Assembly: GCA_964585425.1 (NCBI GenBank)
Contig: CAZPDI010000001.1
Location: 4,804 to 68,803 of the forward strand
DNA: 64,000 nt
Source: an uncultured Candidatus Saccharibacteria bacterium
Lineage (GTDB): Bacteria; Patescibacteriota; Saccharimonadia; UBA4664; CAYXHD01
Reading direction: 5' to 3'
In this document: positions 1,403 through 60,304 of the stretch, in pieces
How the letters are laid out: each line of letters begins with the position of its first letter
How positions within the stretch are numbered: position 1 is the first letter of the stretch
The notes under the pieces: generated by a model
Database searches by the model: none
The model's input: only the letters and a program-made list of their open reading frames with translations
Told to the model about the DNA's origin: nothing
Program-made: the position numbers and the translations under genes

Positions 1403-3034
1403 CTAATTATGCGGCATGTGGTCGTAGAGATGCTCCATGCCGTAAGAATGGCGCAGTAGCTTCTTGGTCTGATCGGTGGTGACGCCAATCTTTTTACCGG
1501 GATTCATGATGTTGTGCGGATCAAAGAGCTTTTTAACTTCTACGAATACCTTATACACATCCTGTCCATACAGGTCTTTAAGATAGGGCGCGCGACTCAA
1601 GCCGTCGTTATGTTCACCGCAGGTACTACCGCCAAGACTGATGACCATTTTGTAATACTCATCAGCTAGCTTAAGAACCTTGGTGCGATCTGTGGCTTTA
1701 CTAACATCCATAAAGGGCTGTAAGTGCAGATTAGCGTCGCCGGCATGCCCCCAAACCGCAATATCCAACTTATACTTTTTAAGAAGTTTGTAGGTCCCCT
1801 CTAGGAGCTTCTTAATATTATGGAGCGGCACCACGCCGTCTTCAATGATTGGTAAGGCTTTTTGTTTGCCTTTGTTCATCCAGATTACGGCAGCAGCCGA
1901 GTGACGTATGCGCCAGAGTTGCTGTTGCTCATCTTTTTTAACCGACATGCGGTGACTACGTGCATAGTTTTCGAGTATCCTAATAGCCCGATGAGCTTTG
2001 GTTTGACGCACAACGCTCGAATGATTATCGAACTCACACAACAAGACAATCTTGGGTGTTGGCGAAGGAACTAAACCACGGATCATACTGGGATGGTTCT
2101 TTTGTAAGAACTCCAACAGATTCTTATCGACAAACTCTAGAGCACTAGGCTCGAGCTTAATGAGTTTACGGCACGCCGCGGCCATATGGTCAAGATCATC
2201 AAAAAAGCCAACGAGCAGCGTAGTGTGCGGGTTATAGATAGGCACACTTAATTGAGCCTCGGTAACGATACCAAGCGTACCTTGCGAACCAACGATCATC
2301 GGCGTCAGGTCAAAACTACCGTACTTACCGCGAACGCCCCATAGGTTGTAACCGGCAGCATTTTTGCTGGTATGAGGACGAGCTTTATTAAGTAATGATT
2401 GGTTCTTGGCAATGAGCTCATCGAGCTCTCGGTAGATTTTACCCTCAAGGTTCTGTTGCTGCTTTTTACGAGCCAGTCCAAGCGGTGTAAGGCGTTTCGT
2501 AGTAATGATTTCGCCATTACTGAGCACCACCTGTAGGCTGCGTACATACTCGCGGGTTGATCCGTACTTAATCGTTTTTTCGCCACAAGCATTATTGCCA
2601 ATGGCCCCGCCAATACTACTAAAGTTAATGCTCGATGGATATGGAGGCATAAAGCGATGATGGCTATGAAGCACCCGCTGCAATGATGCATAGTGGACGC
2701 CCGGCTGAACAATCACCAGGTTCTTATCGATTTCTTTAATATGATGCATGTGGGCCGGGAACACCAGGCTCACCCCTTCGCCCAGAGCACCACCAGATTG
2801 ATCGGTGCCGCGGCCACGAGCTGTAATGCCAATGGTTTTGCGCTTACTGCGGGCTTCTTCGTCTAAAATCTTGACCACTTCGCTCACATCCTTGGTACTT
2901 GTAGGGTATACTACCGCCTGAGGTGTTTGGGTAAAAATACTACCATCAACGGCAAAGTAATCACGAATGTTTTGATCGGTAAAAATATCGGCCTTGGTGG
3001 CTTTTTCGATTTTAGTAATAAGTTCTTTGCGCAT
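1403..3034 (-). CDS. FAD-linked oxidase (GlcD / D-lactate dehydrogenase family)
   Basis: 543 aa with an FAD_binding_4-like N-terminal region (VVYPTSTKDVSEVVKI..GRGTDQSGGAL) and an FAD-oxidase C-terminal region (GGSTCGEHNDGLSRAPYL). Confidence 0.8.
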   Translation of the reverse strand: MRKELITKIEKATKADIFTDQNIRDYFAVDGSIFTQTPQAVVYPTSTKDVSEVVKILDEEARSKRKTIGITARGRGTDQSGGALGEGVSLVFPAHMHHIKEIDKNLVIVQPGVHYASLQRVLHSHHRFMPPYPSSINFSSIGGAIGNNACGEKTIKYGSTREYVRSLQVVLSNGEIITTKRLTPLGLARKKQQQNLEGKIYRELDELIAKNQSLLNKARPHTSKNAAGYNLWGVRGKYGSFDLTPMIVGSQGTLGIVTEAQLSVPIYNPHTTLLVGFFDDLDHMAAACRKLIKLEPSALEFVDKNLLEFLQKNHPSMIRGLVPSPTPKIVLLCEFDNHSSVVRQTKAHRAIRILENYARSHRMSVKKDEQQQLWRIRHSAAAVIWMNKGKQKALPIIEDGVVPLHNIKKLLEGTYKLLKKYKLDIAVWGHAGDANLHLQPFMDVSKATDRTKVLKLADEYYKMVISLGGSTCGEHNDGLSRAPYLKDLYGQDVYKVFVEVKKLFDPHNIMNPGKKIGVTTDQTKKLLRHSYGMEHLYDHMPHN

Positions 3035-3123
3035 ATGCTTATTGTAGCAATTTGGCGACTGTTATGCGACAGTTCAGGGGAACATTTATACGAAAAATCC
3101 TTTGGGATGATCCTTGTTCAAAA

Positions 3124-3193
3124 AAACACTTTTTTGCTTATTGCAACTTTGTGGCATTAAGGGGGTCTTATCGCAACTAATTCGCAATAAGCA
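3124..3193. promoter_or_regulatory. Dual-box operator-like module upstream of the FAD-oxidase gene, homologous to the znuA/zur intergenic module
   Basis: Box 1 is TTATTGCAActTTGTGGCATTA (3137-3158) and box 2 is TTATCGCAActAATTCGCAATAA (3167-3189). An 11-bp perfect inverted repeat TTGCTTATTGC (3133-3143) / GCAATAAGCAA (3183-3193) is also present. About 80% identical by eye to 60241-60304. Confidence 0.5.
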
Positions 3194-3279
3194 AACAAGC
3201 CGTTTTTTAGATAGAACCCCGCCCCAGCCCCTGGCTTAAAGGCAAAAGATATGCTAGAATCTGCTAGTTACCCAACCAC

Positions 3280-3365
3280 GCGCGAGTGGTGGAATGGTAG
3301 ACACGCTGGCTTCAGGTGCCAGTGGGGGCAACCCCGTGGAGGTTCAAGTCCTCTCTCGCGCACCA
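3280..3365 (+). tRNA. tRNA-Leu (anticodon CAG), class II with long variable arm, CCA encoded
   Basis: Acceptor stem GCGCGAG/CTCGCGC. Anticodon stem CTGGC/GCCAG with loop TTCAGGT. Variable arm GGGGGCAACCCCGT. T arm GGAGG-TTCAAGT-CCTCT. Discriminator A followed by CCA. Confidence 0.9.
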
Positions 3366-3380
3366 TTTATGAATATTTAG

Positions 3381-5117
3381 TTACATACGCGGGACTAATG
3401 TACTGCGGACCGTCCAGTTTTGAACATTATAAAATCGATCGGCGGCAGTTATGATCTCGCCATCACTAATGCCCTGCACCGTTTCCTCGGTTACATACAG
3501 GTAGTTTGGCGTATAGAGCATAACTGCCGGATCATCGGCACTCCACGTGTCTAGGAAGCTTTTAAGGCGTACTTTGCGTACATTTGGGTCAGTGGTGGCG
3601 CGCGCCGAAACCAGGGCTTTATCGGCCACCGGGCTACTGTATTGTGCAACGTTTAAACCAGGAGCCTTAGCCTGCGAGGAATGCCAGTAGGGATACGGAT
3701 CTAAATCGGCACCGGCATTGAGCCCATACAACAACATGTCGTAATTACGGGGCGTAATATAACTACGCTGCAAGCTGGCGACGTCCAGAACCTCAACATC
3801 CAAAGCAATACCAACAGCAGACAACTGCTTAGTAAGACGCTCGGCGACTGCTTGATAATCATCATTCTGGGCAGTCACCATACTCAAGGTGAGCTGCTTT
3901 CCGTCCTTAGTTCGCACCGAATCGCCACTTTGTGTCCAGCCAGCCGAATCCAACAACTTTTTGGCTTCCTGGATATTCTGTTTAGGTATTTTGTAATCAC
4001 CGGCAGCTGGCAGCTGACTCGTCAAAGCTGGCACAACCAGCGGCTTAGCCTGATCCTGCAAAATAGATGAAATAATTTCTTGACGATCAACGGCCGCAGC
4101 GATGGCTGATCGAACGTTAACGTCGCTCAAAATTGGACTCTGATTCCTCAAGAATAAGGCGACTTCCTCGGGGATCGAAAGGGCATGTAACGTGGTGCCG
4201 CGACCATAGCTGGACCCCGAAGTATTTGCCGAGCGCGCCATACCCATAACTTGATGCTTGCGGAAAGCCGATTGCAGCTCCGCCTGGGTGGCATAGACGC
4301 GCAATACGATACTGTCCAACTTGGGCTTACCACGGAAGTAGTTAGCATTGGCCTGCAAGGTAACTGAGCCGTTTTCGGTATCAAAGTTAGTCACCGCAAA
4401 GGGCCCGCTCCCCACCGGTACCTGGTTAAAGTCGGAGACCCGCAAATCAGCGGCGGCCGTAGTCTTGAGTATGTGTTCCGGCAAAATGCCCACGGTGGTT
4501 GAGTTTAAAAACGCGTCGTAACGTACCGGCAGCGTAACTACCACGGTTGTCGCATTAGGCGTAGCAACCTCAACGCCCTTCCAGGCCGAGGCCATTGGCG
4601 ATCGCGTATCCGGATTTTGAATACGATTAATGGTAAACGCCACGTCGGCCGACGTGACCGGCTGATCATCCTGCCACTTAGCATTGGGCTGGAGCACAAA
4701 CGTATAGGTTCGCCCATCAGGACTTACCGTCCAGGATTTAGCTAGGTCACCCTCAATTTCGGCCTTATGGTTATAGCGAGTCAGGCCAGAGAACACTAGT
4801 CGCGCAGCATCGGCATTGGCGCCGCTATCTGCCAGAATTGGGTTGATGGTAGTAATGCTACCGGTTATACCCTCGGTATAGGTGCCGCCCGGCTGGCCAG
4901 CTAAACGTAAATAAAAACTGCGTAGGGACCTGAGCTGCAAAAAGCTCACGATGCTAATAAGGGCCACGACGCTCAGCCACAACACCGTCACGCGGCGCAC
5001 CGGCTTATTGTTCTTCCAAGGCGTTACGCCCTCATGTTGAACCCGCTCCCAAAAATGTCGAATAGTAAGCGACAAGCGCTCTCTGGTTCTATGTAGGGAT
5101 CGTGGCGTTAGCCCCAT
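3381..5117 (-). CDS. ABC transporter substrate-binding protein, family 5 (peptide/nickel type), membrane-anchored
   Basis: 578 aa with an N-terminal TM anchor. SBP_bac_5-like signature: LAKSWTVSPDGRTYTFVLQPNAKWQDDQPVTSADVAFT. Confidence 0.8.
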   Translation of the reverse strand: MGLTPRSLHRTRERLSLTIRHFWERVQHEGVTPWKNNKPVRRVTVLWLSVVALISIVSFLQLRSLRSFYLRLAGQPGGTYTEGITGSITTINPILADSGANADAARLVFSGLTRYNHKAEIEGDLAKSWTVSPDGRTYTFVLQPNAKWQDDQPVTSADVAFTINRIQNPDTRSPMASAWKGVEVATPNATTVVVTLPVRYDAFLNSTTVGILPEHILKTTAAADLRVSDFNQVPVGSGPFAVTNFDTENGSVTLQANANYFRGKPKLDSIVLRVYATQAELQSAFRKHQVMGMARSANTSGSSYGRGTTLHALSIPEEVALFLRNQSPILSDVNVRSAIAAAVDRQEIISSILQDQAKPLVVPALTSQLPAAGDYKIPKQNIQEAKKLLDSAGWTQSGDSVRTKDGKQLTLSMVTAQNDDYQAVAERLTKQLSAVGIALDVEVLDVASLQRSYITPRNYDMLLYGLNAGADLDPYPYWHSSQAKAPGLNVAQYSSPVADKALVSARATTDPNVRKVRLKSFLDTWSADDPAVMLYTPNYLYVTEETVQGISDGEIITAADRFYNVQNWTVRSTLVPRM

Positions 5118-5136: not shown

Positions 5137-5358
5137 TTACTTCTTAGCCAGTAGACCGAGAATCAGCGACAGCACAAACACGACACCGCTAATGATAGTG
5201 AGGTTAAATACTACCTTTTCGGCTCCTCGTTTGTTTCTAAAATTTCCTGAGCTGCCACCAAAGGCATCACCCAAGCCGCTGCTTTGTTGCTGGAGTAAAA
5301 TCATAATCGTCATGATTATGGCCGATATTACGGTAATAGTGTAAAAGAATGTTTTCAT
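5137..5358 (-). CDS. secG: Preprotein translocase subunit SecG
   Basis: 73 aa with two TM segments and the central motif LLQQQSSGLGDAFGGSS typical of SecG. Confidence 0.7.
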   Translation of the reverse strand: MKTFFYTITVISAIIMTIMILLQQQSSGLGDAFGGSSGNFRNKRGAEKVVFNLTIISGVVFVLSLILGLLAKK

Positions 5359-8693: not shown

Positions 8694-9879
8694 TGAGCAC
8701 GTCGTCTTCGATGCGGACACCTATCCCCTCTTCGGCGATATAAATACCCGGCTCACATGTCAGCACCATACCGGCTTCGAAGACTGCTTCACGACTGCCC
8801 ACGTCATGAGCGTCAAGACCTAAAAAGTGTTAGGTAATATGTTTAAAATAACGACGATAAGCTGGCCAACCTAGCTCACCTTCTAACTCATCGGCCTTTT
8901 CTAAAGTTTCAAATAATCCAATCTCAACCAACGTATTAGCCATGATCTGAGCCGCTTGGCGTTCAAATTCGTTGAATTTGACTCCTGGTTTCATCAAAGC
9001 TAATGCCTCTTGCTGGACCAATCGGACTGTATCTATAATCTGCTGTTGGCGTTCACTCAACTCATCAATCGAAAACGTTCGCGAGATATCCGCCGCATAA
9101 CCTTCGACTTCGACGCCGACATCAAACAAGACCAGATCACCCTTATTCATTTTAGTCGCATCTGGCTGATGATGAATAATACAGGTATTTTTGCCAAATG
9201 AGATAATAGGCGGGAAGGCTTGCTCATAGCCTCGCGCGCTACAAAATTTAATAAATTCGGCAGCTATTTCTCGCTCAGTAACCCCCACTTTCAACAATGA
9301 TTTGGCGTGAGCTATGGCTAGATGCGTCTCAGATATAGCCTGGGATATCACATCAACTTCTTCATCAGATTTAATCACGCGCAAATTTTCTATTTCGGGA
9401 TTGATCGCCGCCAACTCTACATCTGGATGAGATTCTTTGATCAGGTTCCATAACTGCCAAGCTGCTATCTGACTCACTGCAGTATCTGGCATGTCTATAT
9501 ACACAATTTGTGGCGAATCCTTCAGGAGCTTTGCTATCAGCTCATCTCGCTCTTTATACTCCTGGATCGAATCTATACCGCTCTGAGTCCTCAGTTCAGC
9601 AATCTGATTGCTACGCCCCTCCCAGACTGCCATAAAGGGATGGAGCTGTGTAATGTACAGCTCTTCAATAATACGCTCATCCTGGGTCTTTTTAAGCACC
9701 AAAATCGCATCTGGCTGACTGATACCGGTCAGATACAAAAAATTATTACTCTGCCGGAACGGATAGGTGGCGTCGGCAGTACGCTCAATCTCTGAATTAC
9801 CCGCCAGTATAAGCATACTATCTGGAGCCATAGTGGCCGCTATCTGTTGACGCCGATGTAGATAAGTCGCGCTATTCAT
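8644..9879 (-). pseudogene. pepP: Xaa-Pro aminopeptidase (M24B, PepP-like) interrupted by one in-frame TAA at 8830-8832
   Basis: The track ORF 8830..9879 ends ..YFKHIT*. The same frame continues [61 protein letters not shown] to TAG 8644-8646. That stretch carries the conserved M24 metal-ligand blocks (GLDxHD, EPG, RIED). Confidence 0.75.
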
Positions 9880-9906
9880 ACCTCTATACTACCATGTCAA
9901 AACCTA

Positions 9907-9936
9907 TTGACATTACTATCACTTGGGAAGATAATA
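9907..9936 (+). promoter_or_regulatory. Candidate promoter of GC-rich cassette 1a
   Basis: TTGACA (9907-9912), an 18-nt spacer, then ATAATA (9931-9936). A 5' stem-loop TGAGCGT/ACGCTCA at 9948-9966 follows. Confidence 0.5.
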
Positions 9937-11207: not shown

Positions 11208-11275
11208 ACTCACCTAAGTGTATATACACGATAAATACATTTAGGTGAGTATTATTAAGATAAACACAACTTCTA

Positions 11276-11304
11276 TTGACAAATAGGGTTTAGTTTGCTA
11301 TACT
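11276..11304 (+). promoter_or_regulatory. Candidate promoter of GC-rich cassette 1c
   Basis: TTGACA (11276-11281), a 17-nt spacer, then TATACT (11299-11304). Confidence 0.65.
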
Positions 11305-11365
11305 TATGCGCAATCTGGTGGAACACCCATCCGATAGAACACAGACCACAACCCAAGGAAAGCCC

Positions 11366-12103
11366 ATGTCTCAGCTCGTCATCGTCCAGGGCCCCAAGCC
11401 CCGCACGTCCGCGGTGTCCGACAAGGATGCCCACAACCTCCGCCTCCAGGCGGACAAGGTGCTGGCCAGGCACCGCGGTGATCTCCCCCAGGAGATCGTC
11501 ACGCAGCTGACCAGCCCGATGCCCGGCATCGTGGGCATGGGACTGCACGACGCGGCCTCCTGGATCAAGCAGCGCACCGCCAACCTCAAGCTGCAGTACG
11601 TGCAGCAGCACCCCGACTGCGAGGCGGCCATGGCCCTCAAGACCCGAGTCGACAACGTCCTCAACGGCGAGTTCGGCGACAAGGTCAAAAAGAGCCTCGA
11701 CATGCGTGGTCAGCGCATCCTCGAGCTGGACCTGTACCAGATCTTGAGCACCGACCAGCTGAAGAGCTTCGCCCACTTCGTCAAGAAGGCCGAGGCAGTC
11801 GAGGGTCGCTTGCAGACCGAGAAGGCACGCAAGGCGGTGCCGGCCCAATCGCTCCAGATGCTGTTCCCGTCCAAGGAGAAGCGCGAGCGCAAGCCGAAGA
11901 AGGTCAAGCCGGCCTACGCCGGTCTCCCCGCACCGTCCACCGGGATCGTCACCGACTGGAAGAGCGACGTCGGCAGCGTCGGTGCCCCGAACCCCCAGGG
12001 TCCGGCGCCGGCACGCGGCGTCACCCTCCGCAAGTCCGACAAGGCTCGCGCCAAGGGAGTGAAGGGTGGTGGCGTCAAGACCCGTCCGGGGCGACGCAAC
12101 TGA
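11366..12103 (+). CDS. GC-rich ORFan, 245 aa, with a Lys/Arg/Pro/Gly-rich basic C-terminal tail
   Basis: The start was moved to ATG 11366, behind the SD AAGGAAAG; the track start is 11306. The tail reads KEKRERKPKKVKP..KARAKGVKGGGVKTRPGRRN. No family recognised. Confidence 0.55.
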   Translation: MSQLVIVQGPKPRTSAVSDKDAHNLRLQADKVLARHRGDLPQEIVTQLTSPMPGIVGMGLHDAASWIKQRTANLKLQYVQQHPDCEAAMALKTRVDNVLNGEFGDKVKKSLDMRGQRILELDLYQILSTDQLKSFAHFVKKAEAVEGRLQTEKARKAVPAQSLQMLFPSKEKRERKPKKVKPAYAGLPAPSTGIVTDWKSDVGSVGAPNPQGPAPARGVTLRKSDKARAKGVKGGGVKTRPGRRN

Positions 12104-40040: not shown

Positions 40041-40415
40041 ATGAATGCACCTGCCCGTCCCATGCCCGACATCACCGATGTGGAGCTGACCAAGAAGATC
40101 ATCGATGAACGTGTGAAGCACCACAACCTGCGCCATGAAGATGGTGAAGCGATCTGGATGGTAGTCACGGCCATCGGTCATGCCATCAAGATCGGTGATC
40201 CTCAGTACAGCCCGATGATCGACCGCAACGTCACGGGGCTGCGCAACGAGGCGAGGCCAGGCGAAGTTCCGGTCATCTTGCTGTCCGACCTGAACCGCAT
40301 CTTCTGTGACGACACGTTGATACGCGAGCTGCAGCGGGTGTTCCCGAGCATCGTCAATGATGCGGCGCGCGTTGCCTGCTGGAAGTTCCGCAACTGCATG
40401 TACGGATGCGACTGA
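40041..40415 (+). CDS. GC-rich ORFan, 124 aa (variable partner of module copy 1)
   Basis: ATG follows the SD TAAGGA. GC3-rich codons. It ends in the junction GAC TGA TC ATG. Confidence 0.55.
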   Translation: MNAPARPMPDITDVELTKKIIDERVKHHNLRHEDGEAIWMVVTAIGHAIKIGDPQYSPMIDRNVTGLRNEARPGEVPVILLSDLNRIFCDDTLIRELQRVFPSIVNDAARVACWKFRNCMYGCD

Positions 40416-40417
40416 TC

Positions 40418-40627
40418 ATGCGCCTTCGGATCCCCTGGCGCAAGCAAACCGTGCCGCCGCCACCCGCGACTGTCGCGATGAAGGCTGCGCCCCTGGTGCC
40501 GCCACCTCATCGCCGGATGACGGCCGAAGAACGCGCTGCGTGCTGCCAAGATCAGAGGAAGATCAAGCTGCGTGCTGCCAAGCGTTGTCGGCGCAAGGCC
40601 CGAAAGCGCCGACTGCGCAACAAGTAA
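40418..40627 (+). CDS. Pro-rich / strongly basic mini-protein, 69 aa (conserved partner, copy 1)
   Basis: The start was set at ATG 40418, matching the paralog junction TGATCATG; the track start is 40406. It shares the core VAMKxAPLxPPPxRRMTAEERAA and a K/R tail with ORF 42234..42467. Confidence 0.55.
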   Translation: MRLRIPWRKQTVPPPPATVAMKAAPLVPPPHRRMTAEERAACCQDQRKIKLRAAKRCRRKARKRRLRNK

Positions 40628-40647
40628 CCCCCGTGAGGCGGATCGCC

Positions 40648-40680
40648 GAAAGGTCCCTCTTGCGGGGGATCTTTCGTTAT
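40648..40680 (+). terminator. Terminator hairpin, divergent copy of the conserved island-3 terminator
   Basis: GAAAGGTCCC-tcttgcg-GGGATCTTTC followed by GTTAT. Confidence 0.55.
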
Positions 40681-40687
40681 GGTGATA

Positions 40688-40716
40688 TTGATTTATACCT
40701 GTAAATGTGATTAAAT
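40688..40716 (+). promoter_or_regulatory. Candidate promoter of GC-rich unit 3b
   Basis: TTGATT (40688-40693), a 17-nt spacer, then TTAAAT (40711-40716) with upstream TG. Confidence 0.5.
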
Positions 40717-40750
40717 TTCCCTATTCCGTTTCGAGTCCAAAGGAGAGACC

Positions 40751-40984
40751 ATGACGGACGCACATGCCACGGCCGTCTCCACGGTCTATTTTTGGCTCGA
40801 GTACGAGTTGGGTATCGATAATCCTGATCACGTTGAACTGACCATGATTATCGAGAATGGCTGGCTGCGCTATCGGTGCCCGGCCCACGACATCACCCCG
40901 CTTGAAATCGCCCGCCTCGAAGCTGCCTGCCGGCACCACGCCCATTCTCTTGAAGTGCACCTGAACCTGGAGGTTCAATCATGA
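40751..40984 (+). CDS. GC-rich ORFan, 77 aa
   Basis: ATG follows the SD AAAGGAGAG. ATGA overlap at 40981-40984 couples it to the next ORF. Confidence 0.5.
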   Translation: MTDAHATAVSTVYFWLEYELGIDNPDHVELTMIIENGWLRYRCPAHDITPLEIARLEAACRHHAHSLEVHLNLEVQS

Positions 40985-41733
40985 TTGTCCACAAGCACGA
41001 CATCGATACCGCAGCTCGTCTGGCCGCCAAAGAGCGGTTCATGAACGAGTCATGGCTGGATGATCGCAAGGTGCGATCATGGTTCGCTTGGCTCGGTATC
41101 CGTCCTGACGGTCATCAAGCATTGCGCATCTTGCGCGCTGTGCATGCCACGGCTGCCACCGTGCGTGAGTACAAGATCCACCATCGCCACACGCGCTTCG
41201 GTCGAACGATGCGCCTGCAGCGCCGGCTCCCACCGTGGCCCGCCAAGTACGCGGATACCCCGGTCATCAATGCCGCGCAGATGCTGCTGGTGACTCAGCG
41301 CACGGACTACATCCACCTCACGGAGCTGACGCGACCAATTACGGGTACCAGTTATCGGCACGGCGACAATCGACGCGTCGATATGGAAACGTGCAAGATG
41401 TTCCTGGAGAACGTGCAGAGCAAGTTCATGCGCGAAGCCGTTTGGTCAGATGAGTTGGTATGTATCGAGAGCTTTGCGCGGCTCGGCCTGACGCCCGATG
41501 AGCTGCTGGTGGCCGAGATGGCTCTGATCCGTCTGATGAGTAGGTATCGGCACGAAAAGGGGCTTACCTGGTATCTGATGCCGACCTATGGCAGCCGGAG
41601 CCGCCGCTTGCACACCCTCACCATGGGTGATTTCTTGAACATCACCCGATTTCTCCAACCCAACTATGGCGACACCGACATGGAGTTTCTCATGACGCTG
41701 GCCGATCGTCTGCGTTCGCGACTTGCGACCTGA
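40981..41733 (+). CDS. GC-rich ORFan, 250 aa, Arg/His-rich
   Basis: Translationally coupled to the 77-aa ORF. No motif recognised. Confidence 0.55.
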   Translation: MIVHKHDIDTAARLAAKERFMNESWLDDRKVRSWFAWLGIRPDGHQALRILRAVHATAATVREYKIHHRHTRFGRTMRLQRRLPPWPAKYADTPVINAAQMLLVTQRTDYIHLTELTRPITGTSYRHGDNRRVDMETCKMFLENVQSKFMREAVWSDELVCIESFARLGLTPDELLVAEMALIRLMSRYRHEKGLTWYLMPTYGSRSRRLHTLTMGDFLNITRFLQPNYGDTDMEFLMTLADRLRSRLAT

Positions 41734-41753
41734 TCTCGACACATACCCTCGCG

Positions 41754-41796
41754 GGGGCTTTTCTACGGAAAGGTCCCTGCGGGGGATCTTTCGTTT
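41754..41796 (+). terminator. Conserved 43-nt terminator element, copy A
   Basis: The element reads GGGGCTTTTCTACGGAAAGGTCCCTGCGGGGGATCTTTCGTTT. It contains the mini-hairpin CTTTTC-tacg-GAAAGG plus a 10-bp stem GAAAGGTCCC/GGGATCTTTC and a T-rich tail. Confidence 0.65.
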
Positions 41797-41801
41797 ATAG
41801 C

Positions 41802-41830
41802 TTGCAATATCAATACTTTAAATGTATAAT
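41802..41830 (+). promoter_or_regulatory. Candidate promoter of GC-rich unit 3c
   Basis: TTGCAA (41802-41807), a 17-nt spacer, then TATAAT (41825-41830) preceded by TG. Confidence 0.65.
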
Positions 41831-41859
41831 TTGTAAATCCGTACGACCAAGGAGTACCC

Positions 41860-42231
41860 TTGACCGAAGCCAATACCCTACCCAAGGCCGATGCCAGCGT
41901 CAAGCTGTCCGACGACATCATCGCAAGCTGCTACGAGGGCTGCGATCCCCGTGAGTCCGATCGAGCTCGCGGCTGCATCGCCGCCCTCAAGGACCTGCTA
42001 CGGCTCGCCGAGAAGACGCCGAACGACGCGCGCTACCAGGAGATCCGGGAGTTCGACGCCGACACCCTGACCGTTGGCCAGTTCATCACCCTGATGTACC
42101 TGCCGGCGATGTCGCCGAATCAGCCCCGCCAGCTGATGCGCAACGTGCGTAGCAACTGGGGGCGACTCAACCAGCGAGTTCTCATCGAGCTGCGAGACAA
42201 GCTGGATGAGCGCTACGAGCCCCAGGACTGA
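41860..42231 (+). CDS. GC-rich ORFan, 123 aa (variable partner of module copy 2)
   Basis: TTG start 5 nt after the SD AAGGAG. It ends in the same GAC TGA TC ATG junction as 40041..40415, but the two proteins show no visible similarity. Confidence 0.5.
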   Translation: MTEANTLPKADASVKLSDDIIASCYEGCDPRESDRARGCIAALKDLLRLAEKTPNDARYQEIREFDADTLTVGQFITLMYLPAMSPNQPRQLMRNVRSNWGRLNQRVLIELRDKLDERYEPQD

Positions 42232-42233
42232 TC

Positions 42234-42467
42234 ATGGGCATCTGGAACTCTCGGCGCAAGAAGACGACACCACCGCCACCTCCTCCTGCACCTCCTCCGC
42301 CGCCCGCGGCTGTCGCGATGAAGACTGCACCACTGGCGCCGCCACCGCGTCGCCGAATGACGGCCGAAGAACGCGCCGCTCTCAAGCTGCCCAAAGTGAA
42401 GGCCCGGCAGCGCCTGGCCAAGAACCGACGCGCCAAGGTCAGGAAGCGCAAGCACAAGAAGTCCTGA
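42234..42467 (+). CDS. Pro-rich / strongly basic mini-protein, 77 aa (conserved partner, copy 2)
   Basis: Paralog of 40418..40627. It contains PPPPPPAPPPPPAAVAMKTAPLAPPPRRRMTAEERAA and the tail KARQRLAKNRRAKVRKRKHKKS. Confidence 0.6.
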   Translation: MGIWNSRRKKTTPPPPPPAPPPPPAAVAMKTAPLAPPPRRRMTAEERAALKLPKVKARQRLAKNRRAKVRKRKHKKS

Positions 42468-42479
42468 TCGCGCCCCTGT

Positions 42480-42523
42480 GGGGACTTTTCTACGGAAAGG
42501 TCCCTGCGGGGGATCTTTCGTTT
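42480..42523 (+). terminator. Conserved 44-nt terminator element, copy B
   Basis: The element reads GGGGACTTTTCTACGGAAAGGTCCCTGCGGGGGATCTTTCGTTT. It is identical to copy A except for one inserted base. Confidence 0.65.
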
Positions 42524-42534
42524 TTAAATGAGAA

Positions 42535-47326: not shown

Positions 47327-48412
47327 TTAGATGTTGTAGACAGGTTTGCCGAGAGCACGACCAACGGCTTGCGTAAGAGCACCCATGCCCATAATGTACA
47401 CCGCCATACCGGCAAAGATATTTAGCACCGGTACGAGATAAACCAGCAAGACTACGAGTGAACCGACGGCCATGATTACTAGCGGCTGATGCGAGTCTTG
47501 CAGTAATTTTCGACCGACAACGTAGGCTACCACCGGCCCAGACAAAATGCCAGCTCCTGCCCATACTATTCCAAGCAACAGAGCTAATGGAATGCCGACT
47601 ATTGTTACCAGGAGCAAGACCAAGACAAAAGGAAGTAAAAAGGTGGTTATGAGGCCAATGGCCAAGGTTTTGCTAGGTTTGGTTAGCACCAACTCCGCTA
47701 ACCCATTAAAGCGACGAGGAGCTACTATCACCAGCAGCATAGCAGTAATGAACATCATTAAATTAATGAAGAACAAGAAGCCCAGCCCAGCTTTAGGCGC
47801 GCTCTCTTTTGCTGATTCCTTGGCTTTGTTGTCTGGCGATTTGACCTGATTTACGGTTCCGTCCACCGAACCGGCGGAGACTGTTAAGTCATCGGTGCGG
47901 GCATCGAAATTACGAGCAACGTTGCCGGTAACTGTAACGGTAGCCCCGGCAGCATAAGCATCACGCGCTAGATTACCGGCTACCAAAACACTGGATCCGG
48001 CCAGTGTGGCGTCACCGCCAATTTTGGCATCTGGTTCAACGCTAACACTCTGGCCGGCTAGACTAATGGCACGCTGCACAGTGCCCGCTATACTCACGCT
48101 TTGGCCCGCAGCTCTGACACTGCCGTTAACCGTACCGCCGATTCTCACCTCTTGACCGGCGCACATCACATCGCCGTTAACCGTGCCGGTAACAAATACC
48201 GTTTTACCTGCACAAAATACATCGCCGTTAACTGTGCCCGCAATAGTAACGGTACTACCGGTAACAAATAAACTATGATCCACCACTTCCGTCGGTGATA
48301 CGACTGTATTGGTTCCAGATCGATATGGTTGATTGGCTGCTACAGCTACGCCGCCAAAGACAAAAATAGCCAACACCGCTGTAAGTGTCGACGTGAATGC
48401 TAATCGCTTCAT
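47327..48412 (-). CDS. Bactofilin-like (polymer-forming, DUF583-type repeats) protein fused to a polytopic membrane domain
   Basis: 361 aa with a signal/TM N-terminus, repeated GTVNGDV / G.V.G.V beta-helix units and about four C-terminal TM helices. Confidence 0.6.
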   Translation of the reverse strand: MKRLAFTSTLTAVLAIFVFGGVAVAANQPYRSGTNTVVSPTEVVDHSLFVTGSTVTIAGTVNGDVFCAGKTVFVTGTVNGDVMCAGQEVRIGGTVNGSVRAAGQSVSIAGTVQRAISLAGQSVSVEPDAKIGGDATLAGSSVLVAGNLARDAYAAGATVTVTGNVARNFDARTDDLTVSAGSVDGTVNQVKSPDNKAKESAKESAPKAGLGFLFFINLMMFITAMLLVIVAPRRFNGLAELVLTKPSKTLAIGLITTFLLPFVLVLLLVTIVGIPLALLLGIVWAGAGILSGPVVAYVVGRKLLQDSHQPLVIMAVGSLVVLLVYLVPVLNIFAGMAVYIMGMGALTQAVGRALGKPVYNI

Positions 48413-48436
48413 AATGCTCCTGCCCTTATAGTTGTA

Positions 48437-49159
48437 TCATACGCCCGCATTACGGCGCTTGGCAAGCCACATTTTTCGCTCTTGGGAGTTAAAATGTTCA
48501 ATGGCATAACGCAAGGTTGTTCGTGGCATAGTCGCAGCATGTTTTTGTAAAAAATCACGTAACAAATTGGGGTCGACTCGCTTACCCATTTCGCGTAACA
48601 TCCAACCGACGGCTTTATGCATTAAGTCTTGTTTATCATTGATGAGCAGTTCGGCAATTTCGAGGGTTGGACCAGGCTCACCCTTAGTGAGGTAATAATG
48701 GGTGGCGATCATGGCGATGCGCCGCTCCCACATATTTGAAGAGGCGGCGAGGTCCGGCAGTACTTTCGAGTTGGGATACGCAAAGAGATATCCCCCAACG
48801 ATTTGCCGGGCGCTACTATCGACGATATCCCAGTTATTTATATGCGCGGTATTTGCCAAATAGAAATCATATATAATTTTTTGTTGCTGGGTGGCGCCGC
48901 GTTCAAATTGCTTAACGAGTATGATGACGGCTAATAATCGATCTTCGTGCCAAGTACTTTGCAGCAATTTCTTTATCTCAGACAATGACAAATCTTTTCC
49001 AGTTTTGGCCACCTTACGAATATTCGGTACCGTCACGCCAATAAATTCATCGCCTTCGCCATACTCACCCGGTCCAGTCTTAAAAAAATGTGGAAAAAAG
49101 GCGGCCTTTTCTGGGTTAACATAGTCGAGCAATAATTGATGTAAAGACTCGGCGCTCAT
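48437..49159 (-). CDS. DNA alkylation repair protein (AlkD/AlkC-like HEAT-repeat glycosylase family)
   Basis: 240 aa. PEKAAFFPHFFKTGPGEYGEGDEFIGVTVPNIRKVAK..WHEDRLLAV is typical of this family as I remember it. Confidence 0.65.
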   Translation of the reverse strand: MSAESLHQLLLDYVNPEKAAFFPHFFKTGPGEYGEGDEFIGVTVPNIRKVAKTGKDLSLSEIKKLLQSTWHEDRLLAVIILVKQFERGATQQQKIIYDFYLANTAHINNWDIVDSSARQIVGGYLFAYPNSKVLPDLAASSNMWERRIAMIATHYYLTKGEPGPTLEIAELLINDKQDLMHKAVGWMLREMGKRVDPNLLRDFLQKHAATMPRTTLRYAIEHFNSQERKMWLAKRRNAGV

Positions 49160-49188
49160 ACTACACTCTTAATACGTTAAAAATCATT

Positions 49189-50709
49189 TTAGCTAAACAA
49201 ACTCGGTTGCGTGCCGGCAGTTCCCCTGGTTATTTCATCGAGCACTTCGTAAATGCGCACCATGGCCAAGGTATCGAGCGCACAATAGACCAGCAAATCA
49301 TCGAAAACCTTTTGCGCCTCATCGGCCGGCATGTCGCCAAACACCGCACGCATGTATGAACCTTGGGCATCACCACCATTTTGAATACCAAGTTCTTTAT
49401 AGCTTAAATCAGGTGCCAACACTGGTAGGACATTTTTAATACTGGCACTGCCCATAAAACGGGAGTCAACATAGAGCTGTTGCTGGAAGGGATCGATGAG
49501 ATCAACCACACGAGCATTTAGATCAAGCAAGAAGTCGGCGTGCTCCGGGAACATCTCGGCCATTTCGCTGTGGCGCCCGCATTCGAACGCTTTATACCAT
49601 ACGGCGATACTACCAGTAGGGCCAATATCGCGCTTGAGCTGCTCAATGAGTGGCGGCATGGGATTACTCTGCTCCGTCCATAAAAATTCGGTGTGACGCA
49701 ACTCTTGGCCCGGCGCATCAAGAATATGCAAACTGTACTGCATAGGAATTTGCTGATACGGCTTGGTGCCGTCGTATAGTGGCACCGCATCGGCCGCCGT
49801 TTCGTAATCTAAAAAGTAAATTGGGAATTGGATGGTTTGCATAAATTTAGCGATGGCTGGGGCGTCGATGCGCACCTCTCCACTCTTGGTGGTAGCGATT
49901 TGCATTTGCTGAGCCGGCGCCAGCGTACTAATAATCTCCGCGGGTACGTCTTGGATTTTAGTAACTCCGGCGGCCTCCAGCTGCTCAATAAGTTTTGGAT
50001 TCAACCGAGCGAGATTAAGGATGCTGTCAGTCGGCACTTCGCCTTTGAGTTTCTTGTAAATAGGCATCCAATCAAAATAGCCACCATAACTTGCCAGTCG
50101 CGGTGACAAGCTTGGACAATCCGGACTTAGAATCACGTCAAAGGCTTCTTGGACTTTAGCGTCCATGGCCAACATTGTATTATGTACGTCATCAGTCACA
50201 TCGGTGATGCTAGTGAGAGCCATAACATCGATATCACCATTCCGCACATACTGACCATTAACATGGACCACGGCAGTTTTGCGCACCCGATAGCCGCAAG
50301 CCTCTATGGTACGCTTTTGGAATGCCAGATCCCAGGTGTGATCCGGCTTGGCTTTGGTACTAACTTTAATTTCATAAATATCAAACTCATCACCGCCGAC
50401 GCGAACCATGACATCGGTTAAGCAAGCCGTGTTATCAGGCGCCGTGAATTTGGCCTGAAATAATGTTTGAGCGCCAGTCGCCAATAAACGCGCCGTGACT
50501 CGATCCTTTTCGAAGTAATCACCAGTGATGCGTTGACCATCACTAAACAGTTGCTCGGCAAGAGCTTCGAAGCGAAAGCCCATATCAAAAAGAGCTTGGG
50601 TATTAGCATCAATCGGCGGCAGCTTATTGGGCTCAAACTTTTTAAGCCACAACCAAGCCGGGTGTTTTAAAAATACCATAAAGTCAGATTTAGAAAGTTG
50701 ACGTGCCAT
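49189..50709 (-). CDS. DUF2779-like protein (putative PD-(D/E)xK nuclease N-terminus plus exonuclease-like C-terminus)
   Basis: 506 aa. The N-terminus LSKSDFMVFLKHPAWLWLKK resembles the DUF2779 family start. The assignment is from memory only. Confidence 0.45.
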   Translation of the reverse strand: MARQLSKSDFMVFLKHPAWLWLKKFEPNKLPPIDANTQALFDMGFRFEALAEQLFSDGQRITGDYFEKDRVTARLLATGAQTLFQAKFTAPDNTACLTDVMVRVGGDEFDIYEIKVSTKAKPDHTWDLAFQKRTIEACGYRVRKTAVVHVNGQYVRNGDIDVMALTSITDVTDDVHNTMLAMDAKVQEAFDVILSPDCPSLSPRLASYGGYFDWMPIYKKLKGEVPTDSILNLARLNPKLIEQLEAAGVTKIQDVPAEIISTLAPAQQMQIATTKSGEVRIDAPAIAKFMQTIQFPIYFLDYETAADAVPLYDGTKPYQQIPMQYSLHILDAPGQELRHTEFLWTEQSNPMPPLIEQLKRDIGPTGSIAVWYKAFECGRHSEMAEMFPEHADFLLDLNARVVDLIDPFQQQLYVDSRFMGSASIKNVLPVLAPDLSYKELGIQNGGDAQGSYMRAVFGDMPADEAQKVFDDLLVYCALDTLAMVRIYEVLDEITRGTAGTQPSLFS

Positions 50710-50789
50710 GTTATTAGTATAGCAGTGGGAGCACCTAGGTTAAAAACAACTTTTCTGGTTATTGCGACTAATTCGCAGTAAGTAAAAAT

Positions 50790-51470
50790 CTACTTTTTTA
50801 GAGTCCTCTGGAACAAACGATGCCAGCGCCAAAACGCACCAATACCCTTAATGGTGGTAGCCGTATGATTACCAACATTGTAGCGATGCACCTTCATGCC
50901 AGGTAAAGCCGTAATAAGTAACTCGGTATTAGTAGGCGGAATAACAGTGTCTTTTTGTGAATAGATCAGATACACCGGACGCCCATCAAGCAACCCCATA
51001 TCTTTGAGCGGTTCGACCGGACTTAGCTCTTGTGAAAGCTGCGTGAAATCATAACCATTCTTTGTATATGCTGGTTTAAAAGATTTGCCGGCCGGGCTCT
51101 TCCAGATAAATCGCGCAATTGAACCACGAGCTGTCACTAAGGCGGCGGCTCGCAATTGTGGCGTATGCTTGAGCGCGTACAGTGCACTCTCGGAGCCTAA
51201 CGAGTTCCCCATCGTGTAGGACGGAATATCTTTTGGCAAGGTTGCAAGCGTAGCGGCGATATCGCGCTGAACAGCCTCAATCTGCCCAACGTAGGCCATA
51301 ATGTTAGAGGATACTACCGTTTGCGAATCCAGCACATAGGCATAGACTCGGTAGCCGAGCAGTCGCATCATCCAGTAGGCTGGCAGATAGGTGCCAATCC
51401 TCGTACGGTAGCCACCGATAAAAAAGATGACGCGACGCCTGGACAAACCAAACTGGCGCCGCTCAAACAT
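50790..51470 (-). CDS. Alpha/beta hydrolase fold protein
   Basis: 226 aa with the nucleophile elbow GNSLGS and a length and pattern consistent with a small alpha/beta hydrolase. Confidence 0.5.
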   Translation of the reverse strand: MFERRQFGLSRRRVIFFIGGYRTRIGTYLPAYWMMRLLGYRVYAYVLDSQTVVSSNIMAYVGQIEAVQRDIAATLATLPKDIPSYTMGNSLGSESALYALKHTPQLRAAALVTARGSIARFIWKSPAGKSFKPAYTKNGYDFTQLSQELSPVEPLKDMGLLDGRPVYLIYSQKDTVIPPTNTELLITALPGMKVHRYNVGNHTATTIKGIGAFWRWHRLFQRTLKK

Positions 51471-53136: not shown

Positions 53137-53586
53137 TTATTTACAGTCTTTGTCGGCGCCACAACTGTGAGCCAACTTTTTGAGCAGCACCAAGAGCTCG
53201 GTAATGTCTTGGTCACTTAAACCGGCCAGTAACTCTACAATGTGACCGTGTGCAGCCAATCGCAAACCCTCGACCTTCTTTTTACCGGCTACCGTTAAAC
53301 GCACATCGACGACTCGACGGTCCTCGGTTGAAGCCTCACGACTCACAAGCTCCATTTGTACCAAACCTTCGGTTAGCTGGGTAGCGGCACTGCTGCTAAT
53401 ACCCAACAGCTCGGCCATCAGCTTAATGGTAGCTGACTCGCGGCAACTCAAAAGATGCAGGGCTTCGGCTTGAGGGCGGCTCAAGCCTTGCGACGCTGCC
53501 GAGCTAGCCTTAATCGGCAGCACCTGGCGTTGCACCATGGCCATGACTTGCATGTATTCTTTTACGAGTTCTTCGCGCTTGGTCAT
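53137..53586 (-). CDS. MarR-family transcriptional regulator
   Basis: 149 aa with a winged-helix pattern (LSRPQAEALHLLS..TIKLMAELLGISSSAATQLTEGLVQMELVSR..DRRVV). It lies upstream of the MFS gene. Confidence 0.8.
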   Translation of the reverse strand: MTKREELVKEYMQVMAMVQRQVLPIKASSAASQGLSRPQAEALHLLSCRESATIKLMAELLGISSSAATQLTEGLVQMELVSREASTEDRRVVDVRLTVAGKKKVEGLRLAAHGHIVELLAGLSDQDITELLVLLKKLAHSCGADKDCK

Positions 53587-57778: not shown

Positions 57779-58597
57779 TTATTTACTGCGCAACCGTGCG
57801 ATGACAAAGCGAGCGAGGAAGTAAATGAGGAAGCTAAGGAATGTTACAAAAACACTTGGCTTAATAGTTCCGCTGGCTAAGCTCAGGAGTACACCCCCAG
57901 CTCCGGCAACGAAGGCAAAGCCAACGGAAAGACTAGCGACCATGGCGGGTCTGGCCGATAAACGCATAGCGGCAGCGGCTGGTGTAATGGCTAAACTTAA
58001 GACGAGTAGGGTGCCGACGATTTGGGCCGCGGCAGTTACGGTCAGCGCCAAGAGGATCAAGAACGCTATACCAAGCGCACGAACTGGCACGCCACGAGCA
58101 GCGGCGACCTGCGGGTCAATCGAAGCAAACTGTAATGGTCGATACATAATAATGAGGCCCACGATGACGAGCACACAAATTCCTATTAAGAATCCGAGTT
58201 GCGTGGCACTTACGCCATATACATTACCAAAGAGGATGTTGGTCGCCGCGGTGGCGAAGCCACGATAATAACTCAGGAACAACACGCCAAGCCCAAGCCC
58301 AAAGGCCAAGATGACGCCAATGGATGAATCACGTTCTTTTTCACGCACGCCAAGTAAACCGATTGATACGGCGACGATAAGTGCGCCAATAATTGAGCCA
58401 AGCGGCGCATTATTGAGGAACAATAGTCCGGCGGCCGCACCAGTAAAGGCCAGTTCGCTAATGCCATGCACCGCAAACGCCATGCTGCGACGAATCACAA
58501 AAGGGCCCACCAGACCACAAATCATGGCAATGATGGTTGCCGCCAATAAAGCGTGTTGCGCAAAGGGCTGACCTAAATAGAATAGGAAGTTATTCAT
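57779..58597 (-). CDS. znuB: Metal (Zn/Mn) ABC transporter permease, ABC-3 family
   Basis: The start was moved to Met32 (58597), which overlaps the znuC stop. The protein has about eight TM segments in ZnuB/TroD-like context. Confidence 0.8.
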   Translation of the reverse strand: MNNFLFYLGQPFAQHALLAATIIAMICGLVGPFVIRRSMAFAVHGISELAFTGAAAGLLFLNNAPLGSIIGALIVAVSIGLLGVREKERDSSIGVILAFGLGLGVLFLSYYRGFATAATNILFGNVYGVSATQLGFLIGICVLVIVGLIIMYRPLQFASIDPQVAAARGVPVRALGIAFLILLALTVTAAAQIVGTLLVLSLAITPAAAAMRLSARPAMVASLSVGFAFVAGAGGVLLSLASGTIKPSVFVTFLSFLIYFLARFVIARLRSK

Positions 58598-59330
58598 GAT
58601 GCCCTCCCAGTGCCTCGGCGTGTAAACTATCTTCGGCGCCAAGCACCACCATGCGACCGTGGATATTGAGCACTTCGACGGGTGAGCCATACAGCTTACT
58701 CAGGGTCTTAGTTGTCAGGATTTCCTCAGGCGTGCCTAGCAACCACTTCTGCCCCACTAAATATAAAACCTTATCAACCATTGGCAGAATCGGATTAATG
58801 TCGTGCGTCACAAATACCACCGCCGTATTATGTTTGGTACGACGTTCATTAATGAGATTGCTGACGATTTGCTGTTGCGTTAAATCGAGCGAAAGCAGCG
58901 GCTCGTCACATAGCAAAATACTTGGATCTTCAACTAAGGCCTGGGCCACACGCAATCGCTGTTGCTGACCACCACTCAGGGTGCCGAGCGGTTTGTGCGC
59001 AAACTCTTCGGCACCGACGGCTTTAATTGCCTTATCGACGGCCGTCTTCTTGCCTAAGCCTACACCATACTTATGGCCATCTAAACCAAATCGCACTAAG
59101 TCGTAGCCGCGAATGGCGGTGTCATCATCAAAGCCACGGTGCTGCGGAATGTAGCCAATACACTGATCGGCGTGATTTTCTAACAGGCGTTTTAACAAGC
59201 TCGTCTTGCCCGACCCGTTTGGCCCCAGCACCACCAAAAACTCACCGGGCTCTATATTAAGATTAAGATTTTGCCAAAGCTTATGCTCGCCAAATTGCAA
59301 GCTAACGTTCTTTAAGGAAATGAGACTCAT
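58590..59330 (-). CDS. znuC: Metal ABC transporter ATP-binding protein
   Basis: 246 aa with Walker A GPNGSGKTS, signature LSGGQQQR and Walker B ILLCDEP. Confidence 0.85.
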   Translation of the reverse strand: MSLISLKNVSLQFGEHKLWQNLNLNIEPGEFLVVLGPNGSGKTSLLKRLLENHADQCIGYIPQHRGFDDDTAIRGYDLVRFGLDGHKYGVGLGKKTAVDKAIKAVGAEEFAHKPLGTLSGGQQQRLRVAQALVEDPSILLCDEPLLSLDLTQQQIVSNLINERRTKHNTAVVFVTHDINPILPMVDKVLYLVGQKWLLGTPEEILTTKTLSKLYGSPVEVLNIHGRMVVLGAEDSLHAEALGGHHE

Positions 59331-60226: not shown

Positions 60227-60240
60227 GTCTTTAAAATAAA

Positions 60241-60304
60241 ACACCTTTTTGCTTATTGCAAATTTGTCGCATTAGTGATATCTTATTGCAACAAAGTCGC
60301 ATTA
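60241..60304. promoter_or_regulatory. Dual-box operator-like module in the divergent znuA / zur promoter region (candidate Zur boxes)
   Basis: Box 1 is TTATTGCAAatTTGTCGCATTA (60253-60274) and box 2 is TTATTGCAAcaAAGTCGCATTA (60283-60304). Each is an imperfect palindrome, TATTGCAA..TCGCATTA. The boxes overlap TTGCAA -35-like hexamers on both strands. Confidence 0.55.

Follow-up and report, generated by a model that had tools for sequence, protein, structure and literature searches.

What is the same nearly palindromic stretch of intergenic DNA doing at two places in one genome, once between the gene of a metal importer and that of a Fur-family regulator and once upstream of a flavoenzyme gene? 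The question is raised by 64,000 nucleotides (nt) of contig CAZPDI010000001.1 from an uncultured Candidatus Saccharibacteria bacterium, hereafter the window, for which an original prediction made from the letters had noticed two regions aligning at roughly 80% identity (here site A and site B) and had read them as the operator of Zur or of another Fur-family protein, which would bring a flavin adenine dinucleotide (FAD)-linked oxidase into a metal-responsive regulon. A repeat search identified the two regions as a direct repeat of 76 nt (3120-3195 versus 60235-60310) with 80% identity, and the column identity in a MAFFT alignment was 79%, in agreement with the earlier estimate. The shared end, the two boxes and the 8-nt spacer that had been described for each site were likewise found in every detail, and so was their context, with site B lying between the ATG codons of the znuA-family and the Fur-family genes and site A between the FAD oxidase and tRNA-Leu genes. 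The boxes are best explained as probable operators of a Fur-family metalloregulator, the gene of which lies at 60322-60765 (called fur in what follows); here, we infer binding, the sign of regulation and the metal from sequence comparison.

The motif scans of the host genome covered the 64-kb window and made use of two matrices, from both of which the window itself was excluded. The first, symmetrised and 21 nt long, was built from 8 boxes located in the znuA/fur gaps of L002, L003, L007 and L008, which are the orthologous loci of the close set and encode a regulator 57-70% identical (close-locus matrix), and the second from the boxes of 34 distant fur loci (34-locus matrix). The distant set comprises 80 loci, 700 kb in total, with regulator homologues of 30-43% identity that were retrieved by a metagenome scan with the regulator alignment. 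L026 and L003, both of which recur below, are parts of one 130-kb contig. The close-locus matrix identified exactly five positions in the window, namely two boxes each at sites A and B and a fifth one, box C, with scores of 20.6-23.8 and a next best value of 11.9; the 34-locus matrix returned the same five boxes at 21.6-27.2, the next best position scoring 8.4. Searching with the box pattern of the original prediction and allowing for up to three mismatches gave 9 strand-matches in the window as compared to 0.28 expected, a number that was reached by none of 100 shuffles. The elements in question are the following.

3120-3208: whole site A module, an 89-nt near-palindrome with 42-nt arms that are 76% complementary, an A-run on its left and a T-run on its right
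3125-3146: shared end of site A, AACACTTTTTTGCTTATTGCAA
3138-3159: box A1, imperfect palindrome TTATTGCAACTTTGTGGCATTA, scores 23.8 (close-locus matrix) and 21.6 (34-locus matrix)
3160-3167: spacer of site A, 8 nt, AGGGGGTC
3168-3189: box A2, TTATCGCAACTAATTCGCAATA, scores 21.4 (close-locus matrix) and 24.0 (34-locus matrix)
50759-50781: box C, single box TTATTGCGACTAATTCGCAGTAA, scores 20.6 (close-locus matrix) and 26.0 (34-locus matrix)
60240-60261: shared end of site B, AACACCTTTTTGCTTATTGCAA
60253-60274: box B1, TTATTGCAAATTTGTCGCATTA, scores 22.0 (close-locus matrix) and 27.2 (34-locus matrix)
60275-60282: spacer of site B, GTGATATC
60283-60304: box B2, TTATTGCAACAAAGTCGCATTA, scores 21.2 (close-locus matrix) and 27.1 (34-locus matrix), covering the predicted fur transcript start region
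60322-60765, plus strand: Fur-family regulator, 147 amino acids (PF01475, E = 4.7e-18)

At both sites the boxes are imperfect palindromes of 21-22 nt, two per site with a gap of 8 nt between them. Their palindromic character, which had already been claimed, is borne out by 21-mers that are self-complementary at 12-20 of 21 positions and that approach perfect palindromes in L003 and L008. The consensus of the window boxes reads TAWTGCRAC-N-GTYGCAWTA, the wider form found in Saccharibacteria is WWTTGCAA-N5-TYGCAAWW, and box A2 also fits the strict pattern TYGCRA-N5-TYGCRA. Two features expected of a Fur-type operator are found, an AT-rich inverted repeat with a central base in 7-1-7 arrangement and the gene of the cognate regulator next to it.

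Evidence for the assignment also comes from the distant set, as nearly all of its 80 loci carry WWTTGCAA-N5-TYGCAAWW just upstream of the fur homologue, usually in the order box, TGnTATAAT, about 6 nt and ATG. In 53 of 75 distant loci the strict pattern was found no more than 160 nt upstream of fur, the median distance to the ATG being 45 nt, and it matches only once elsewhere in the 700 kb, with 0.7 matches expected by chance. The gene divergent from fur varies between these loci (ZnuABC-like, ZIP, nicotianamine-synthase-like, YkuD or of an unknown family), and as a consequence the fur homologue itself is the sole constant partner of the motif. Judged from the loci compared, this constant pairing is the signature of a putatively autoregulated Fur-family operator. 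Two extra matches in L076, one at 6537 between convergent gene ends and the other at 8631 in coding sequence, were examined, and neither is a regulon site.

In the window, site B fills the 95-nt gap between the znuA-family ATG (60226, minus strand) and the Fur-family ATG (60322, plus strand), and the promoter elements predicted within this gap are closely interwoven with its boxes.

57779-60226, minus strand: metal ABC importer operon consisting of binding protein (59327-60226), ATPase (58590-59330) and permease (57779-58690); Pfam ZnuA, ABC_tran and ABC-3
60233-60238, minus strand: predicted znuA -10 element TATTTT, separated by 17 nt from TTGCAA and by 6 nt from the ATG (60226)
60276-60284, plus strand: predicted extended -10 element of fur, TGATATCTT, 17 nt from TTGCAA, extending across the spacer between the boxes into the beginning of box B2

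The self-complementary hexamer TTGCAA in box B1 (60256-60261) is the predicted -35 element of both divergent promoters. With the znuA -10 element placed only 6 nt before the ATG of the binding protein gene (PF01297, E = 6e-52), a leaderless mRNA is implied, and the position of the fur extended -10 element puts the predicted start of fur transcription inside box B2. The znuA promoter layout TTGCAA-17-TATTTT is also present in L002, L007 and L008, counterparts of the fur -10 element were identified in L002 (TGATATATT), L008 (TGGTATCTT) and L003 (TGGTACCTT), and five genomes retain the whole znuA/fur arrangement, including the distance of 30 nt between the two boxes. The regulator itself has only 13 relatives at E <= 1e-10 in a collection of 5.8 billion proteins. 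In L003, heliorhodopsin and short-chain dehydrogenase genes (11211-11975) follow directly downstream of fur, and they are absent there in the window.

The third locus, absent from the original prediction, is marked by box C, which is a better palindrome than the boxes of sites A and B. It is located 50 nt upstream of a DUF2779 gene, with its centre about 61 nt from the ATG, and 8 nt past the stop codon of the preceding hydrolase gene (50790-51470).

47327-50709, minus strand: putative target operon of box C, encoding a DUF2779 nuclease (49189-50709), an AlkD-like DNA glycosylase (48437-49159) and a bactofilin-domain protein (47327-48412); Pfam

The genes of this operon are separated by gaps of 29 and 24 nt, and its predicted promoter (TTAACC-16-TATACT with a TG extension, 50743-50716) leaves box C upstream of the core promoter. 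Orthologous dual boxes precede DUF2779 at 761-811 of L003 and at about 1226-1276 of L007, so that three genomes, including that of the window, have DUF2779 boxes. Motifs recognised by eye suggest that the DUF2779 protein may be a fusion, with an N-terminal PD-(D/E)XK nuclease motif (D...EIK) and C-terminal DEDD/RNase H-like motifs (FLDYET ... YCALD), and the protein returned no sequence relative from the PDB at E <= 1.

That the oxidase would belong to the same regulon was part of the original prediction, and site A was compared among related genomes. The locus is composed as follows.

1403-3034, minus strand: FAD-linked oxidase, 543 amino acids (PF01565 and PF02913, E = 9e-31 and 1.5e-49)
3041-3049, minus strand: predicted core promoter of the oxidase, extended -10 element TGCTACAAT, 6 nt before the ATG at 3034
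3252-3260, plus strand: extended -10 element of tRNA-Leu, TGCTAGAAT, read from the sequence
3280-3365, plus strand: tRNA-Leu(CAG), divergent from the oxidase (ARAGORN, Rfam)

As for znuA, the distance of 6 nt between the extended -10 element and the oxidase ATG implies a leaderless mRNA, and this -10 element is conserved in all orthologous loci, no matter if the module is present or not. Nine further contig groups contain orthologues of the oxidase with 82-92% identity. In the interval from tRNA-Leu to the oxidase, a dual box is present in L009 (box starts at -140/-110 from the oxidase ATG), L026 (-137/-108) and L028/L029 (-162/-132); overall, the module stands at the oxidase in 4 of 9 related genomes, which makes the putative membership of the oxidase lineage-dependent. 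In the L003/L026 genome the boxes occur, like in the window, at znuA/fur, DUF2779 and the oxidase. Their half-sites differ from genome to genome, being TAWTGCRACT in the window, TAATGACAAT in L003/L026, TAATGCCAGT in L008 and TAWTGCCACT in L002, and every locus of a genome carries the half-site variant of that genome. Boxes from different loci of the same genome share 18.4 of 21 positions, whereas boxes from the same locus share 14.7 of 21 when the window is compared with L003/L026. The spacer follows the locus, with the similar sequences AGGGGGTC (window) and AGGGCCCT (L026) at the oxidase and GTGATATC or GTGGTACC at fur. That the boxes of orthologous oxidase sites track the regulator of each genome is accounted for by a functional binding site under selection and not by a passive repeat, and the pattern across the loci is the one that co-evolution with one trans-acting factor predicts. 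The claim that the oxidase is a member of the regulon is thus strengthened by a dual box that is kept at its orthologues in three other genomes and follows the variant of each, a comparison of predicted sites throughout.

A biochemical rationale for metal-linked control is provided by the oxidase itself, since it retains a metal triad (H430, H437 and E474) together with the catalytic H475 within the motifs GHAGDANLH (GHxGDxNxH) and GEH. The spacing of these ligands is identical to that of H398, H405, E442 and H443 in mouse LDHD (alignment to 8jdc), where H398, H405 and E442 bind Mn2+ and H443 is catalytic (PMC10589216). The D2HGDH enzymes of Pseudomonas aeruginosa and human are Zn2+-dependent (PMC10025160, PMC7801405), and an equivalent His-His-Glu set is reported for Zn-dependent D2HGDH enzymes (PMC10025160). 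The best PDB matches of the oxidase are LctD, glycolate oxidase and LDHD (mitochondrial D-lactate dehydrogenase). All NCBIfam equivalog scores fall below their cut-offs, and for this reason the exact enzyme was not assigned; the protein is predicted to be a metal-dependent FAD D-2-hydroxyacid dehydrogenase of the LDHD/D2HGDH/GlcD group. With the solved LDHD/D2HGDH homologues it shares the FAD_binding_4 and FAD-oxidase_C domains as well as the ligand motifs, and it differs from them in being about 70 residues longer in its middle part. A link between the expression of the oxidase and metal supply is plausible.

The oxidase promoter region revealed further conserved sequences. The motif GTCGCATAAC (3060-3069, minus strand), 18 nt upstream of the oxidase -10 element, is kept in the window, L009, L026, L027, L028 and L115. 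Resembling a half-site of the boxes, it was considered as an extra degenerate box and rejected, as it is retained with or without the module and ignores the genome-specific box variant in L026; because this variant is not followed, GTCGCATAAC probably belongs to the promoter and does not serve as an operator. At an Nramp gene of L112 (about 5205-5215), the sequence TACAATAAGCWTATG recurs in nearly the same form as at the FAD oxidase. Nramp (MntH) was also considered as a target, owing to a match in L112 at 5057 (score 15.1), which lies inside the coding sequence for the conserved DDDPSGIATYSQAG and was taken as chance. In L111, about 210 nt of unrelated sequence separate the tRNA and oxidase promoters, and at about 2180-2400, where others carry the dual box, two unrelated palindromes, GTTAACCAAATGGTTAAG and AACCTAATGGTTAAC, are found, which may be the operator for a different regulator at the same position. 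Across the clade, the promoters share one design of an extended -10 element (TGnTACAAT or TATACT), about 6 nt and ATG (3041-3049; 50716-50721), and this shared design implies leaderless mRNAs in the clade.

How would a single regulator act at three such differently built loci? One box would bind one regulator dimer and two boxes 30 nt apart would bind two. At znuA/fur, two bound dimers would occlude both of the back-to-back promoters that share TTGCAA, and the metal-loaded regulator would most likely repress the importer as well as its own gene, which is the classical autoregulated repression of the Fur family. The same regulator would bind the dual box upstream of the oxidase and the single box upstream of the DUF2779/AlkD operon. 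The boxes at the oxidase and DUF2779 lie upstream of strong and conserved core promoters of the leaderless, extended -10 type, which rules out simple occlusion, so that control must differ there. Conceivable options are activation from upstream, a block of read-through, or a weak second promoter inside the module, whereby read-through from co-directional upstream genes could be stopped by a protein roadblock or by a hairpin terminator. As to the TTGCAA hexamers resembling -35 elements that the original prediction had noted in the boxes, the hexamer at znuA/fur coincides with the predicted -35, and at the oxidase TTGCAA is probably not the -35 element because the boxes sit upstream of the conserved core promoter and not on it.

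Several observations weigh against the operator reading. Site A is found 90-160 nt upstream of the oxidase ATG and thus clear of the core promoter, boxes A1 and A2 are centred at about 115 and 145 nt from this ATG, and the distance from box to ATG varies among genomes (-108 to -162), which is atypical for simple repression as well as for activation with a fixed geometry. The module is absent from L027, L030, L111, L112-114 and L115, the oxidases of which are 85-87% identical to that of the window, and in four of the five module-less genomes the tRNA promoter directly abuts the oxidase promoter. No box was found at 15 oxidase orthologues of 48-54% identity; a weak match recurring at -13/-31 of distant oxidases was recognised as N-terminal coding sequence and not as a box. 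Neither of the promoters predicted for znuA and fur was recovered by the strict consensus scan. Lastly, a long hairpin bordered by T-runs is formed by the module, which at the non-fur sites may have a role at the RNA level or as a terminator.

A broader reading would assume rapid co-evolution of regulator and operator, recruitment of the regulator as an upstream-acting factor besides its role as a promoter-occluding repressor, and a portable module, a combination that we regard as possible and decidedly tentative. According to this, the half-site would come to differ between genomes whose target enzymes remain about 90% identical, the regulator would serve as activator or as roadblock/insulator at a metal-dependent flavoenzyme and a DNA-repair nuclease operon, and the palindrome of about 90 nt would be gained or lost as a unit beside tRNA-Leu.

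Among the rival explanations, the one that survives best confines the operators to znuA/fur and takes the copies at the oxidase and DUF2779 as hairpin terminators or insulators, with or without a protein roadblock, which would stop read-through from the SBP_bac_5 gene (3381-5117, via tRNA-Leu antisense) and from the hydrolase gene (50790-51470). As RNA in the direction of the oxidase, site A, with its 89-nt near-palindrome between an A-run and a T-run, folds with -33 kcal/mol (z = -6.4) and its stem runs directly into UUUUUUU; yet two similar palindromes will always give such a hairpin, its stem is long, rich in AU and imperfect, unlike the short GC-rich hairpin directly before a U-tract that makes up an intrinsic terminator, and box C alone folds like shuffled sequence (z = -1.1). 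Similar folds were obtained for L026 and L028, but a gap of about 10 nt separates the stem from the U-run in L009 and L028. Both non-fur sites are located downstream of a gene on the same strand, however in L028 the gene immediately upstream has the opposite orientation. Four genomes share the T-runs of the FAD site though the surrounding intergenic DNA no longer aligns; against this, the terminator scan found nothing in 2950-3400 nor at boxes B or C, and a pure terminator has no need to follow the genome-specific box sequence. Since the fold is expected from similar palindromes and the terminator scan was negative, we consider a transcript-level role unlikely and retain it as the foremost competitor.

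Binding of the boxes by another factor, e.g., the MarR-family protein encoded at 53137-53586, with the Fur-family gene being merely a target, is a markedly less probable reading. MarR proteins also bind palindromes of about 20 bp, and a MarR-MFS-hydrolase-DUF2779 cluster lies within a few kb of znuA/fur in the window, L003 and L007. However, about 80 distant loci have the motif beside the fur homologue irrespective of the neighbouring gene, the box has the 7-1-7 architecture of the Fur type, and upstream of the MarR gene there is no box, the best nearby score being 9.5-10.8 at 53095, inside the MarR/MFS junction.

Slightly less probable still, and hardly to be expected, is a mobile or duplicated palindrome resembling a miniature inverted-repeat transposable element that was inserted by chance into three intergenic regions and does not regulate the oxidase. 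It would account for the 22-nt flank AACACYTTTTTGCTTATTGCAA, which is near-identical at sites A and B (2 matches in the window, 0.00 expected), and for presence or absence of the module among related genomes at the same position between tRNA-Leu and the oxidase promoter, tRNA-adjacent sites being common insertion points. Yet the boxes co-vary with the genome while the spacer stays locus-specific, neither target-site duplications nor terminal repeats besides the boxes were found, and instead of the dispersed repeat with many copies unrelated to promoters, which the original prediction had named as the outcome that would speak against it, there are three loci in 64 kb, each of them upstream of a gene, boxes at the same three gene families in the L003/L026 genome and at only three locus types in contigs of the related clade, and the one stray strict match in 700 kb. 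A known RNA element was dismissed, as the tRNA is the only Rfam match of the window and a search of 2950-3300 gave none at E <= 1.

Returning to the Fur-family regulator as the probable ligand of the boxes, the question of its metal was approached from both the regulator and the importer. The regulator carries C90, C93, C130 and C133 (structural zinc site) and H84-H87, and H30, E76, E105, H122 and E125 are invariant in the family alignment. Its only cysteines are the two CxxC pairs and none is located at a sensing site, where a Tyr aligns with Cys76 of Mycobacterium tuberculosis Zur, which we take to be the sensing residue of that protein. The His/Glu ligands resemble sites 1 and 2 of Fur, which is suggestive, not decisive. 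The sensing site of PerR is made up of His37, Asp85, His91, His93 and Asp104 (Bacillus subtilis numbering), and a site of this type is incomplete in the regulator since in the alignment to 2fe3 Asn98 occupies the position of Asp104 and His37 falls into a gap. The PDB matches of the regulator, M. tuberculosis Zur (2o03, top), Vibrio cholerae Fur and B. subtilis PerR, all score near 1e-11, and therefore an assignment of the metal by structural relatives failed.

On the side of the importer, zinc-type binding proteins possess a third His where the manganese/iron type has Glu. In the window protein the ligands are H78, H137, E196 and E276, which align with those of MntC and AdcAII, do not vary among 5 orthologues and are also present in 7 distant loci; the three His plus Asp/Glu of the zinc type are thus not present in the window, and the protein has no His-rich loop. 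Zinc is favoured by the His-His-His-Asp binding proteins encoded beside regulator relatives in L033 and L034, and distant relatives of the regulator that are divergent from ZIP transporters or a nicotianamine-synthase-like gene fit zinc without being specific to it. No zinc-sparing paralogue was found next to a box in the window. Taken together, zinc on the one hand and manganese or iron on the other are about equally probable as the signal. Of the original reading as an operator of Zur or another Fur-family protein, the Fur-family part is supported by the two matrices and the pairing with fur, and the Zur part finds neither the sensing Cys nor a zinc-type binding protein.

Some genes beside the distant fur homologues deserve mention in their own right. 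In L049 (9131-9934), L101 (9081-9899), L103 (9036-9881) and L109 (9020-9898), the gene divergent from the fur homologue encodes a protein of about 270-290 amino acids that lacks a Pfam match; a stretch of the Gly-x-His-Gly type was recognised by eye in all four, and they are candidate regulon members. In L076, a nicotianamine-synthase-like gene (9145-9912; PF03059, E = 1.4e-41) is divergent from the fur homologue, which hints at a metallophore pathway in some Saccharibacteria. Apart from the regulon, the window contains a region of about 57% G+C (40410-42526) with direct repeats of 86 nt (87%, 1840 nt apart), 55 nt and 54 nt (91%) and three copies of TGCGGGGGATCTTTCGTT, and further G+C peaks were identified at 10-12 kb and 56-58 kb.

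The Saccharibacteria (TM7) are ultrasmall epibionts with few regulators, and the literature searched contains almost nothing on their gene control and no description of a Fur-family operator or regulon for them. In this respect, the minimal putative regulon would consist of the metal importer, the regulator, the nuclease/AlkD operon and, in some lineages, the FAD hydroxy-acid dehydrogenase; to our knowledge such a flavoenzyme has not been described in a Fur-family regulon before. With the motif WWTTGCAA-N5-TYGCAAWW, the metal homeostasis of hundreds of uncultured genomes may become accessible to annotation, and the drift of the half-site with all targets following would be a clean natural example of the co-evolution of regulator and operator. 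At the same time, the ligands of the binding protein, which are not of the zinc type, caution against automatic 'ZnuA/Zur' labels.

When compared with known systems, the boxes come closest to the Fur-family operators of B. subtilis, for which the 7-1-7 consensus sequences are TGATAATnATTATCA (Fur), TTATAATnATTATAA (PerR) and TCGTAATnATTACGA (Zur). The L003 core TGACAAT-A-ATTGTCA agrees with what we take to be the Fur consensus at 12 of 14 positions, with one mismatch per half-site. Common to both are the AT-rich inverted repeat with a single central base, the presumed binding of a Fur-family dimer and the overlap, predicted here, with the promoters of a metal importer and of the regulator gene. 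Unlike in B. subtilis, the half-site is TTGCAA or TYGCRA in most Saccharibacteria, full boxes come in pairs with a distance of 30 nt in the clade of the window, the self-complementary outer half-site also provides the predicted -35 element of two divergent promoters, and the half-site drifts between closely related genomes. Actinobacterial Zur boxes are of the TGAAAATnATTTTCA type, and divergent znuA/zur loci (znuACB-zur) are known. With these the window shares a Fur-family gene divergent from a cluster A-I ABC importer and an operator in the common gap, and it differs by a His-His-Glu-Glu binding protein without His-rich loop and by a regulator with Tyr in place of the sensing Cys76. Activation by Fur-family proteins from upstream sites is known for Streptomyces coelicolor Zur at zitB and for Fur in Neisseria and Helicobacter. 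There, as at box C (about -61) and site A (about -115 and -145), the operators are located upstream of the -35 region, the difference being that the box distances vary among the genomes studied here. Hence what distinguishes the saccharibacterial system is not a new mechanism, it is the combination of a TTGCAA-type half-site, a dual box, a predicted -35 element shared by divergent promoters and two unusual putative targets with upstream boxes.

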